A stretch of 64,000 nucleotides of DNA from a virus (taxonomy: Duplodnaviria > Caudoviricetes). The position numbers were made by a program, and so were the translations under genes. The notes below the pieces were generated by a model, which ran no database searches, was not told where the DNA came from, and saw only the letters and a program-made list of their open reading frames with translations. This document shows positions 44,433 to 61,083 of this stretch, in pieces. The stretch covers positions 1 through 64,000 of the IMG/VR virus record IMGVR_UViG_2773858002_000001, one strand, 5' to 3'. Within the stretch, counting starts at the first letter, position 1. Each line of letters begins with the position of its first letter.

Positions 44433-44549
44433 AAGAACCTCCACGCCTTGGCGTGTGCAATTAATTGCATTTCCGCCCTTGTATCAGAGCCGAGGTAGGC
44501 TGTCGTCCACGGGCCAGCGCTTCGGTGCAAACAGCGACCCAGCGCCCAT

Positions 44550-45521
44550 CTATACGTTCTTTAGTTTGACCCCAAGCTCCGCTGAATTGACCTCCGAAAC
44601 ACCCCACGGAAGGCCCGTAGCCGGGTTCGTTGGCAGGTACGCTTGAGCCTTGGTGTATAGCTCCCCGAACTCGAAAGAAGGGCCTTCGTAGTCTGCTCCC
44701 CCGGACCGCACCGCCACGATGGTGTCGAGCGCGGACCCGACCTTGCCCCGAGCTCCTAGGACAACAGCGTCAACGGTGTACCCTGTATCGTAGGGTGAAG
44801 GTATCCCTGTGTTGGTGAAGGTGGAGACTTCGTTTGCATTGACACCAACAATTGACGTCGAACCAGACAAGCCGACACCATTCACATCTGTGTAGCCGCC
44901 GCCCCAATCATTGTAAGACCCGTTCCCCGAGAACTCCATTTGCACCAGATGCTTCTGGAGCGTGCTCTCGTCTGCGAGTATGATTGCTGAAAAGTAGGTA
45001 TCGCCGCTGGTGCTCGCCTGCACTGGACGAAACTCGACTTGTGAAACAGGGTTGCCGGAACCGAGAAGCGTGTCCCCGGAGAAGCTGCCATCCTGAACCT
45101 TGTCGATATAGAACTCTACCACACCAGACGTTTCATGCATGGCGATGTGCAAGTCGATGCGGAAAACCACGCCGTAGCTGTATGCGTTGCTTGTCGTCAG
45201 GAGTGTAGTCCAGGCTGAACCGTCGAATGCTTGCACGTCGTATGTTGAGGTCGAATTGTTGGTCGATCTACGAACCCTAAACCTCGGGTTCCCAGCTGCG
45301 TCGTTGAAGATGAGGAATGGCTCATTGCGATACCAGGCGAAGCGGATGTGTGCCGTAAACCAGAAGTCGGTCGTGGCAGGAAAGATATCGGTTCGGGCAT
45401 ATTCCTCCCATTCAACCACGAAGTATTCTCGAACCGTATCGGCCTTGTACGCCGACCCCGATCCAGATCGTGCATTGCCTTGTACGTCGGCTTCCGAAGA
45501 GCCCGCGAAAAGGATGGCCAT
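44550..45521 (-). CDS. Tail-associated LamG/lectin-like protein
   Basis: Beta-rich; C-terminus NPATG.PW...VN..ELGV, paralogous to 55354-56457. Confidence 0.65.
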   Translation of the reverse strand: MAILFAGSSEADVQGNARSGSGSAYKADTVREYFVVEWEEYARTDIFPATTDFWFTAHIRFAWYRNEPFLIFNDAAGNPRFRVRRSTNNSTSTYDVQAFDGSAWTTLLTTSNAYSYGVVFRIDLHIAMHETSGVVEFYIDKVQDGSFSGDTLLGSGNPVSQVEFRPVQASTSGDTYFSAIILADESTLQKHLVQMEFSGNGSYNDWGGGYTDVNGVGLSGSTSIVGVNANEVSTFTNTGIPSPYDTGYTVDAVVLGARGKVGSALDTIVAVRSGGADYEGPSFEFGELYTKAQAYLPTNPATGLPWGVSEVNSAELGVKLKNV

Positions 45522-45522
45522 A

Positions 45523-59400: not shown

Positions 59401-61054
59401 GGGCCTTGGCCATGGCGTTCGTAAAGGCCCCGGTGATCATATCGACAAGCTGTGTGCCGATTTCGCTCCACGACTGGCTGAAGAATGCCTTCACAGCATC
59501 CCAATTCTTGTACAGCGCTATGCCGATACCTGCGATTGCGGCCACAGCAGCCCCGATCAGGACCGGGACGACACCAAAGCCCGCGACCAACGCACCGATG
59601 AAGCCCTGTGCAAAGGCGGTCACCGCGATGATGGCGAGACGCAACATCTTGAACGGGTTGATGAGGTAGAGCACCAACCCGCCTATGCCCGACAGAGACT
59701 TGGTGAATGCCGCAATCCGCGTGAGGCCAAAAGCCGTAGCGACTGCCGGTCCGACAAGCCGCAGGGCGATGACAAGTCCCTTGATGGCAGGTGCTCCAAG
59801 TGCAATGGCCGCAACCCACGGCTTCACCGCATCCGGTAGAACGTTGAAAGCGGCGGCAATCCCGTCCACGGCGGTTTTGGCAGCGCTGATCATGCTCTTG
59901 AGCGCCGGCCCGAGAGCCAAGCCCAAATCCTTCGCCAACAGCTTGATCGAGTTGCGTAGGCCCTCCCACTGTGCTGTGAGGCCCTTGGCGAAGTTCTCGT
60001 ACTCCTTGTCCAGAGCGACAGGGTTCGCAGCCTCCTTGCGCGCCTGCTCTACTTTTTCTCGGAACAAATCGACGTTGATACCCGCCGTACCCAGGACGCG
60101 GATACTTTCCTCCCCTTGAAGCTGGAACTCACGCAAGAAACCTGTGATCGACTGACCGTCGGCATTGAGAGCCTGCAGGACGCCAAGGAACGTCACGAAT
60201 GCTTCCGTGGGATTGTCAGCAATCATCGCCTGGAACTGCTGCCGCGTGAGGCCCGTCGCCTGCGTAAGCATGTCCATGCCTTTTGTGCCGTCCTGCGCAG
60301 CTTCCGTGAGGCGGTTGAGTGTGCGACCGACCGCCGTACCGAAGAGTTCCGGTCGCATATCGAGCTGCGCGGCGGCAGCACCCAGACCCGCGAGTGCAGT
60401 TGAACCGATCTTGAACTGAGCCGTTGACTGCGCCAGCGTTGCAGTCATGCGAAGGATTTCACTCTCGGTCGCAGCCGTGTTGTTGCCGAGACCAACAAGC
60501 ACAGACGCGAACGTCTTGACCTGGCCGATCCCGTCCCCGGTGATCGTGAGCAGCCTGGCGATGGATTTCGATCCCTCGTCTCCAACGACGTCAGAGGCTG
60601 TCTGAAGCTTCCCCATCGTTTCGGTGAAGGCTTGGATGTTCTGCACCCCGGTCACGCCGAGCTGACCGGCTGCACCTGCAATGCCGAGAAGAGACTCGAT
60701 CGACACACCATCCATATCGCGTGCGAGCGCGTCGAACCTGTTGCTGAAATCGTCCATCGCCTGTGCGGACAGGTTCGTGGTTTTCTGGACGTTGAGCATC
60801 CCCTGCTCGTACGTGGCGAATGTGCGTATGGTGGCCTGCCCGAGACGCATTGAGGCCCACATACCAGCAACGGCTTTTGTCGCCTCCTTCGCCTTGCGAG
60901 AAAGCTCCGTCAGACTATCCGATGCCTTCTTGTTCTCCTGGGTGAACCCCTTGGAACCCTTACCGGCTTTGTCGAAGCCACCGCCAACCTTGTTTAGGAT
61001 GGCAGTGGCCTCATCTCTCATCCGCAGGATGAATTCGAGTTCTTCGCCGTTCAT
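56483..61054 (-). CDS. Tape measure protein with C-terminal CHAP-like peptidase domain
   Basis: TP901-type TMP core (IA..AGQLG), long helical repeats, AWCAAFVN...GHVGF...GN. Confidence 0.93.
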   Translation of the reverse strand: MNGEELEFILRMRDEATAILNKVGGGFDKAGKGSKGFTQENKKASDSLTELSRKAKEATKAVAGMWASMRLGQATIRTFATYEQGMLNVQKTTNLSAQAMDDFSNRFDALARDMDGVSIESLLGIAGAAGQLGVTGVQNIQAFTETMGKLQTASDVVGDEGSKSIARLLTITGDGIGQVKTFASVLVGLGNNTAATESEILRMTATLAQSTAQFKIGSTALAGLGAAAAQLDMRPELFGTAVGRTLNRLTEAAQDGTKGMDMLTQATGLTRQQFQAMIADNPTEAFVTFLGVLQALNADGQSITGFLREFQLQGEESIRVLGTAGINVDLFREKVEQARKEAANPVALDKEYENFAKGLTAQWEGLRNSIKLLAKDLGLALGPALKSMISAAKTAVDGIAAAFNVLPDAVKPWVAAIALGAPAIKGLVIALRLVGPAVATAFGLTRIAAFTKSLSGIGGLVLYLINPFKMLRLAIIAVTAFAQGFIGALVAGFGVVPVLIGAAVAAIAGIGIALYKNWDAVKAFFSQSWSEIGTQLVDMITGAFTNAMAKARGIWEDFWNWATGQSISQRAFEANAAEAGNTFQKMLDGMETTVDVTPKINTDGVAGLRGLSDSNREALAGLDDLRKAKEEIAEIEKALKSLREISDLYPESNDARSEAEIRRLEAQLELRRRQLDPVNERLRLMDIEIADAAAITAEERNRLEVLSEIRALEEEIGRLTEQQKSSIEARVRALQDARKNAALKEMTQDLTEQFREAQAITRAEKNRLAVLHEINAFERENGQLKAGQRQELERLIQATQQADQFSSLRSNLDPQGEAIRAYQDDLATLRAEYESGRLSAEKYKQMVDQLNRSTMTARDPFAGQMKSLQQQMDLLRITGDYKDADRNTQRTINQLTEQGVRLTKDQVSALSAANRELQDMEKAQNSGLQGWMNSVGSLKDNLLDLTQDFASGLSDALVGVFTGQKGAITNFLRSIATSMVRLGVNQLMKNMMQGFQSGASGMGGGGGIGGFFSRLFGRGGQGSAPTKDAASGVQDALQAMNAATMNVTAATVMINGSPVGVPGVGGPTTGSIPFSGSSGGSGSVFDKIIGAGGAGNTNLASIGSQINSAVAQSASSAVDNATKFLGMSEHTNASQLNSFMKSQGVDIDAAKTAWCAAFVNSNLESVGVDGTGSLVANSFLKWGEGVNPKDVLKGDVLVQHRNKGYGNTGGHVGFATGNTKMSEKGLLLEMLSGNEKDRVQKSWKLADQVAVRRATSEMGNKPLDAMSTASVPEVQQLTNQWQQQMATANANIAQQMPQAFQAPMQNVGQQFGQVFTQGGNALQQVAPQFQNIAQQAQSIVPQLGGFGQSLTGLMGPLMQAPAATGQFGSAIMQLLQQMSGGMGGGFGGIFGLLGGLFHKGGDVDGSVPASGLRLMPANTWAGAVKHHKGLKSSEYPAILKRGEKVLTANDNKRNMNLIEGLTARLEAQQRQRSQNDRSRYGNGSNYQQTINVYAEDANSFRRSEGQIMADSSVQLRRLGSRNS

Positions 61055-61083
61055 CGGGCCTCACCTTGTGCAATTAATTTCAC

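Follow-up and report, generated by a model that had tools for sequence, protein, structure and literature searches.

Why would a phage carry copies of one palindrome inside its tail genes, several kilobases apart, and what keeps them there? The question is raised by the first 64 kb (the whole stretch analyzed, 64,000 nt, called the window below) of the IMG/VR virus record IMGVR_UViG_2773858002_000001, referred to as G000, a 91,801-bp record rated 93% complete, with 57% G+C and approximately 133 genes (130 on the minus strand). The repeated word is a perfect 14-bp palindrome, TGCAATTAATTGCA, and its symmetric flanks extend it to 16 bp, (G)TGCAATTAATTGCA(C). At up to two mismatches it is matched 40 times in the window, compared with 0.12 matches expected by chance, and the whole record contains 52 sites in 91.8 kb, with tiny intergenic spacers being favored. 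An initial annotation of the window had singled out five sites in the tail region and suggested that selection acts on coverage or spacing rather than on the position of promoters. Our analysis supports this suggestion, as random models are rejected, independent relatives are even, and no promoter is found in the tail region: selection maintains the spacing of the sites, not their placement with respect to genes. We then read the sites of the tail as the sparse end of a genome-wide array, the palindrome being the predicted operator of a phage dimeric protein that would act at a distance and be spaced for coverage; we hold this reading to be somewhat more probable than not.

The tail module of G000 is of the RcGTA/phiJL001 type. 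The five sites are found where the initial annotation had placed them, two of them inside coding sequences and three at gene junctions. In the order of transcription, the features of the region are as follows (sites are given without strand).

61069..61082: site with one mismatch, 14 nt ahead of the tape-measure ATG (61054), in the 29-nt spacer that precedes this gene
56483..61054, minus strand: tape-measure gene (1523 amino acids, aa), homologous to the tape-measure genes of relatives
56470..56483: site with one mismatch, between the tape-measure stop codon, which it overlaps by 1 nt, and the ribosome-binding site of the next gene
44550..56457, minus strand: eight abutting or overlapping tail genes (identified by Pfam); neighbors overlap by up to 8 nt or are separated by up to 3 nt
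52192-52644, minus strand: NlpC/P60 open reading frame (ORF) of 150 aa (Pfam)
52498..52511: exact site inside the NlpC/P60 ORF, codons 45-49, TTG CAA TTA ATT GCA, encoding LQLIA
47079-49583, minus strand: DUF2793 tail-fibre-like ORF of 834 aa (Pfam)
48365..48378: site with one mismatch inside the fibre gene, codons 402-407, encoding SAINFT
44456..44469: exact site in the 117-nt spacer before a PG_binding_1 (lysin-like) gene at 43299-44432

The gaps between the five sites are 3909, 4133, 3972 and 4599 bp. The largest of them is equal to the length of the tape-measure gene, which contains no site even if two mismatches are allowed in the arms. The tape measure is followed by the genes for a 367-aa protein, a DUF2460 protein, the hub (Gp84_N and BR0599), NlpC/P60, an 870-aa protein (Phage-tail_3 and Rcc01698_C), the 834-aa DUF2793 fibre, a 518-aa Laminin_G_3 protein and a 323-aa protein. 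Since this 12-kb block (56457 to 44550) has no intergenic spacer, any site in it must be coding. The initial annotation had described the palindromes as forced into the tail genes, and the wording is fair, given both the lack of spacers and the rare codons of the in-gene copies. In particular, TTA makes up 1.1% of Leu codons in G000, and CAA, ATT and GCA make up 18%, 22% and 17% of their respective classes; for a fixed peptide, the codons seen would be used with a probability of 7.5e-5 at the NlpC site and 8e-3 at the fibre site. The junction sites 44456, 56470 and 61069 lie 12-23 nt ahead of the next start codon, and no consensus sigma-70 promoter is found on the coding strand across 43-62.5 kb. 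A megablast search of the tail region against phage records yielded no match.

Permutations of the gaps over the complete record reject both uniform and gene-aware random models. The initial annotation had reported no gap above about 4.6 kb in the window, and the same holds through the rest of G000, where no long stretch is free of the motif: the largest gap amounts to 4599 bp (4804 bp when only sites with at most one mismatch are counted), and the coefficient of variation (CV) of the gaps is 0.69. Under uniform placement the median largest gap is 7.4 kb, and the observed values have P = 0.004 for the largest gap and P = 0.003 for the CV. A gene-aware null, in which sites are drawn from random gene junctions and random in-gene positions, gives P = 0.002, and a null in which junction sites are fixed and in-gene sites randomized gives P = 0.003-0.011; from junction sites alone, the largest gap in G000 would be 12 kb. 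In the late half of the record (44-92 kb) the median gap is 2445 bp, with CV 0.48 and P = 0.001. The base farthest from any site is at 2.2-2.4 kb in G000 and in two relatives, G007 and the Vibrio phage VH2_2019. The choice of spacers and the in-gene placement of sites follow distance along the DNA.

The regular spacing of about 4 kb, also proposed in the initial annotation, stands in part. The run of four near-equal tail gaps (CV 0.065) exceeds chance after a look-elsewhere correction (P = 0.02, and P = 0.0014 with the further requirement of a mean gap of 3 kb or more), but 4 kb is the upper range of the gaps, not a period, and the tail rhythm of G000 is in part simple inheritance, as two gaps, of 3973 and 4133 bp, are shared by G006.

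Relatives were collected by an exact-word scan of viral contigs followed by scans of whole records, which gave ten IMG/VR records with the same array (sites in relatives are counted at up to one mismatch in the arms). Moreover, tblastn with P0001, the candidate reader of the palindrome described below, identified cultured phages, namely Rhodobacter phage RcZahn, Stenotrophomonas phages DLP5, DLP3 and Summit, Rhizobium phages RHph_Y1_11 and RHph_TM16, and many Vibrio phages. In RcZahn, DLP5, RHph_Y1_11 and VH2_2019 the arms are TGCAAT..ATTGCA, with a lineage-specific center. A scan of 185,579 species genomes produced one match only, JAHDXY010000001.1 (95,965 bp), a stand-alone phage-sized contig in a Burkholderiaceae metagenome-assembled genome, which carries a P0001 homologue at 59% identity.

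Evenness is more pronounced in independent relatives. VH2_2019 has 34 sites with mean gap 2359 bp, maximum 4471 bp and CV 0.40, including nine consecutive gaps of 1828-2510 bp; in DLP5, 35 sites have CV 0.46 and maximum gap 5962 bp. Both phages have P<0.003 under every null. Among the IMG/VR records, G007, a complete genome with direct terminal repeats, is significantly even (P<0.0003 with junction sites fixed), and G005 and G008 are significant as well. These results bear on an alternative, namely that there is no selection on spacing, the sites being local operators or internal regulatory sites and the tail rhythm arising from long genes and shared ancestry. Three of the five tail sites are indeed at junctions, the 4599-bp gap simply is the tape-measure gene, the two gaps of G006 came by descent, and several relatives, with gaps of 7-15 kb, are not more even than chance. 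Still, gene-aware permutations reject this explanation in G000, G007, G005, VH2_2019 and DLP5. The intervals of about 2.0 kb in VH2_2019 span from one to eight genes each, and half of the DLP5 sites (18 of 35) are deep inside genes, and the tail region has no promoter.

Comparison of homologous tail genes, a check suggested in the initial annotation, had the outcome expected from selection on spacing and bears on the same alternative. The tail module of G000 is common to G006, G007 and G010, and the junction site 56470 is conserved in all three; a junction site equivalent to 61069 is also present in G006, G010 and G005. The NlpC site occupies the same alignment column and has the identical DNA word in G000, G006 and G010, although the proteins are 58% identical, while in other homologues the peptide at this position varies. 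Elsewhere in the gene, the site is found at residue 34 in G007 and at residue 83 in G004, so that the lineages differ among three codon positions. In the fibre, G000, G006 and G007 have the site at residues 402-404, with the same variant in all three; the fibre of G010 lacks it (AVNF) and has sites at residues 162 and 887 instead. The partly conserved peptide AINF, encoded by the fibre site, speaks for local elements; the gain of sites at three different codons of one 150-aa gene speaks against them, and on balance we consider an array of purely local elements unlikely.

Internal sites also occur in unrelated long tail genes, with two in a 2093-aa gene of G005 and one in a 1062-aa gene of G007. 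The tape measures of 1644 aa (G007) and 1639 aa (G001) contain one internal site each, and those of 1376-1600 aa are site-free and set the largest tolerated gaps of 4.4-4.9 kb. The in-gene tail sites, encoded in G000 at a cost in codon usage, are kept or replaced in relatives. The possibility that in-gene sites mark mosaic boundaries was also considered and rejected, as identity to relatives is unbroken at both the fibre and the NlpC sites.

The next question is what reads the palindrome. In the comparison of site variants, 160 changes affect a single arm and 3 are compensatory, which, together with the symmetric flanks, points to a dimer reading DNA, not to a hairpin. A hairpin in RNA or DNA, acting as a processing site, terminator or cruciform, would agree with the inverted repeat and with the few copies in G000 that are followed by a T run, but the fold of the 16-nt palindrome is weak (-5.2 kcal/mol), its central bases are conserved within each genome and the changes are non-compensatory, so that this explanation has hardly any probability left. 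The one-arm variants of G000 are divided 9 vs 8 by orientation. No conserved asymmetric promoter elements were found flanking the sites.

The candidate reader and related features of G000 are as follows.

27547-28758, minus strand: P0001 (phrog_17202), with a conserved N-terminal peptide, SAP-like helices, an H1-like AKK linker and a predicted ParB/KorB-type DNA-binding domain
28844..28880: two sites in tandem, 85 and 108 nt ahead of the start codon of P0001
20040..20555, minus strand: P0002, a 171-aa paralogue of the P0001 DNA-binding domain
85359-86264 of G000 (outside the window): a separate ParB_N protein of 301 aa (Pfam ParB_N, 5e-16)

The likeliest reader of the palindrome is P0001, predicted to be autoregulated. 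A site is located 59-197 nt upstream of the P0001 ortholog in nine of nine genomes checked, and the C-terminal domain of the protein is 38-86% identical in every checked motif-bearing genome that holds the gene. The AlphaFold2 (AF2) core of P0001, with a predicted local distance difference test (pLDDT) value of about 85, aligns with the DNA-binding domain of ParB (6s6h, Z 8.3), Spo0J (1vz0, Z 7.5) and the KorB-operator complex (1r71, Z 6.3); further fold matches, with Z down to 4.0, are 8qa8 (Z 5.3), 1zx4, 3mkw and 3vwb, and include P1 ParB, SopB and VirB. These ParB-family matches come only from exhaustive structural alignment: Foldseek gave no match at E below 0.001, Pfam none at E up to 10, and the P0001 profile none against PDB sequences. 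A second abundant palindrome, as a possible target of the paralogue P0002, was looked for in G000 and not found.

Two observations on the N-terminal part of P0001 may be added. The peptide SLSLLKG, within residues 1-14, is invariant in six orthologues, and residues 40-94 have a weak match to SAP domains (Z 4-5).

The predicted ParB/KorB-type domain, the H1-like basic linker and the sites in its own promoter region suggest that P0001 reads the palindrome, perhaps in cooperation with the separate ParB_N-domain protein. Residues 17-175 of the latter can be aligned with ParB, Noc and KorB, through the helix-turn-helix. The protein would slide, spread or bridge from each site and in this way act over about 2 kb, in the manner of KorB at its operator OB on plasmid RK2. 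The reach of KorB from OB is up to 1.5 kb, and OB-proximal operators are 4-10 bp from promoters (PMC11790492). Since the late sites are off promoters and spaced by distance, a KorB-like regulator or organizer reaching about 2 kb is favored. An even lattice of this kind would keep the whole genome, coded almost entirely on one strand, within reach, so that transcription could be silenced or timed globally, or the DNA organized or protected.

In the early region the sites are dense, 0.3-1 kb apart, and six sites of G000 are located exactly 8 nt upstream of a TTGNNN-N16-18-TANNNT promoter. Similarly, in G006, G007, G005 and G001 four to five sites each are 6-9 nt upstream of a -35 box, compared with 0.1 for random positions. 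At such host-type promoters, the site 8 nt upstream of the -35 box would resemble an OB-proximal operator. The promoter role of some early sites coexists with spacing. In G007, the positions 79520-87393, an early region of small genes, contain approximately 25 exact sites 60-560 bp apart, which is much denser than the lattice of the late region.

The same distances could also be set by replication or recombination, with the palindromes serving in protein-assisted priming, fork handling or recombination entry on the scale of Okazaki fragments (about 2 kb), as a palindrome puts the same word on both strands. The spacing of about 2-2.8 kb is in agreement with this, and in RcZahn, DLP5, RHph_Y1_11 and VH2_2019 P0001 directly follows RecA-like, Holliday-junction resolvase, Cas4-exonuclease and RuvC-like genes; judging by its sequence, the SLSLLKG peptide might loosely recall peptides that bind sliding clamps. 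However, the dense early sites at the fixed distance of 8 nt from -35 boxes fit transcription control, the similarity between relatives is unbroken at in-gene sites, and, to our knowledge, no primase or recombinase uses a 14-bp palindrome. We consider a replication or recombination role decidedly unlikely.

The ParB-type DNA-binding domain predicted for the candidate reader suggests one more role, that of dispersed parS-like centromeres by which the prophage would be maintained in plasmid form, like N15. No tyrosine integrase was found in G000, and DLP5 is maintained as a phagemid (PMC5834331, PMC7326821). On the other side, no ParA-type ATPase was found in G000 (by a PF13614 search in a record that is 93% complete), the sites are dispersed with no local parS cluster, and their number, 35-60, far exceeds that of any known centromere. 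Moreover, G007 is a complete genome with terminal repeats, and SSP002-like Vibrio phages, kin of VH2_2019, are described as lytic (PMC10101143). Centromeres are accordingly very unlikely as an explanation of the array. With neither integrase nor ParA, and with the first gene running off the end of the record, the 'provirus' label of the G000 record is unsupported and looks doubtful.

Within the reading of the palindrome as an operator acting at a distance, the array may go further and constitute a genome-organization system of its own kind. Its anchor protein, with a ParB-type head, an H1-like linker, a SAP-like module and no clamp, would be nucleated every 2-4 kb, the chromosome would be coated or looped, and the distance between anchors would be policed over codon choice; such a system would recur in unrelated phage groups. 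We put this forward tentatively, as a possibility that is more doubtful than not.

Several observations weigh against the proposed selection for coverage and the proposed reader. G001, G006, RcZahn and short fragments are no more even than chance, with large gaps in G001 (7251 bp), G006 (7277 and 8808 bp), G004 (8995 bp) and RcZahn (up to 14.8 kb), and no weaker hidden site was found in the tail gaps of G001 and G006. The gene calls behind the gene-aware tests were made with a home-made caller. As to the protein, the fold Z-scores of P0001 (6-8) are middling for a helical domain, and the CTP-binding ParB N-terminal domain, which makes ParB and KorB slide, is absent from it. In the separate 301-aa ParB_N protein the counterpart of the DNA-reading helix of ParB is acidic, and the arginine box is GGHHR in DLP5, G007 and RcZahn; from these sequence features, a canonical ParB clamp formed by the ParB_N protein appears doubtful.

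The spacing limit is real but soft. Vibrio phage KarBoss has a P0001 homologue and only two TGCAA-N4-TTGCA words, and RHph_Y1_11 has 15 unevenly spaced sites, and hence not every member of the lineage has the word or the lattice.

Two further sites, listed as intragenic in the initial annotation, are indeed inside genes.

39513..39526: in-gene site at residue 288 of a 318-aa replication-initiator-like ORF, near its 3' end, 77 nt before the next start codon
5750..5763: in-gene site in a 99-aa ORF (codons 8-13), with the next site at a distance of 119 bp

The site 5750 fills no gap. Outside the window, site 70757 corresponds to residue 183 of a 546-aa protein encoded downstream of the portal (69677-71317 of G000), at the start of its Acb1 anti-CBASS domain (Pfam 6.8e-40, residues 172-311). 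The neighborhood of the ParB_N gene, upstream of a large-terminase-like gene, encodes a 295-aa protein with a match to DruA of Druantia (86227-87114 of G000) and a 306-aa protein with an LPG_synthase_C match (88163-89083). In the tail region, a strong terminator-like hairpin (11 pairs and a T run) is present at 62303-62354 of the window, directly after site 62341; the tail-chaperone genes and the tape measure lie downstream of it, and a separate late transcription unit may begin here. Finally, the minus strand of G006 has a 1748-aa open frame (44104-49350) antisense to the hub and fibre genes, with no such frame in G000.

Full-text searches of the literature revealed no relevant paper with the motif or its variants, or describing a lattice in this lineage, and the DLP3, DLP5 and OPA17 papers do not mention repeats. 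What is new here is the direct evidence, supported by the permutations, that spacing is kept by selection, also in culturable phages: in addition to G000, these are phages of Vibrio natriegens (VH2_2019) and Stenotrophomonas (DLP5, DLP3), and RcZahn has a sparser array that is not significantly even. Genome-wide dyad repeats of phages have been in print since 2015, and the question of what a phage must do to its DNA every 2-4 kb has now become testable. A new mode of silencing, organizing or protecting a whole genome, made from parts of the ParB toolkit, could thereby come to light, and annotators are given a reason not to take such sites for promoters.

Several known systems resemble the array in some of its features. 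The linear plasmid-prophage N15 has four dispersed centromere sites of the ParB/SopB type, some of them in or beside genes, and a ParA/SopA partner, whereas the sites considered here number in the dozens and no ParA is found in G000. The KorB/OB system of the IncP-1 plasmid RK2 is similar in the spread of one palindromic operator (about 16 bp) across the entire replicon, with some sites next to promoters (8 nt upstream of the -35 box in G000, 4-10 bp for OB-proximal operators) and others far from them, and in the ParB-type helix-turn-helix domain predicted for the candidate reader P0001. It differs in the number of sites (12 in 60 kb on RK2 vs 50 in 92 kb here), and neither the ruler-like spacing nor the sites written into genes are features of KorB/OB. 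Moreover, in our case ParB_N is on a separate protein with an acidic reading helix, and no KorA-like partner has been identified.

The stoperators of Cluster A mycobacteriophages are likewise tens of repressor sites found genome-wide, some of them off promoters (PMC4351075). They are asymmetric and oriented with transcription, unlike the sites of G000, which are symmetric and have one-arm variants in both orientations. Among published cases, the nearest is the 17-bp dyad repeat of Cluster O mycobacteriophages, TGTTCGGNNNCCGAACA, for which the authors predict a dimeric binder with a role other than transcription initiation (PMC4351075, PMC6439249). As in G000, more than 30 copies of a dyad-symmetric word are scattered across the genome of a siphovirus; ORFs contain about a third of them, most are off promoters, and a protein with a ParB-like domain is encoded. 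The word, the phage lineage and the hosts are unrelated, the relatives of G000 being RcZahn, DLP5, RHph_Y1_11 and Vibrio phages, and for Cluster O the paper, in which spacing was not analyzed, gives denser copies at one genome end.

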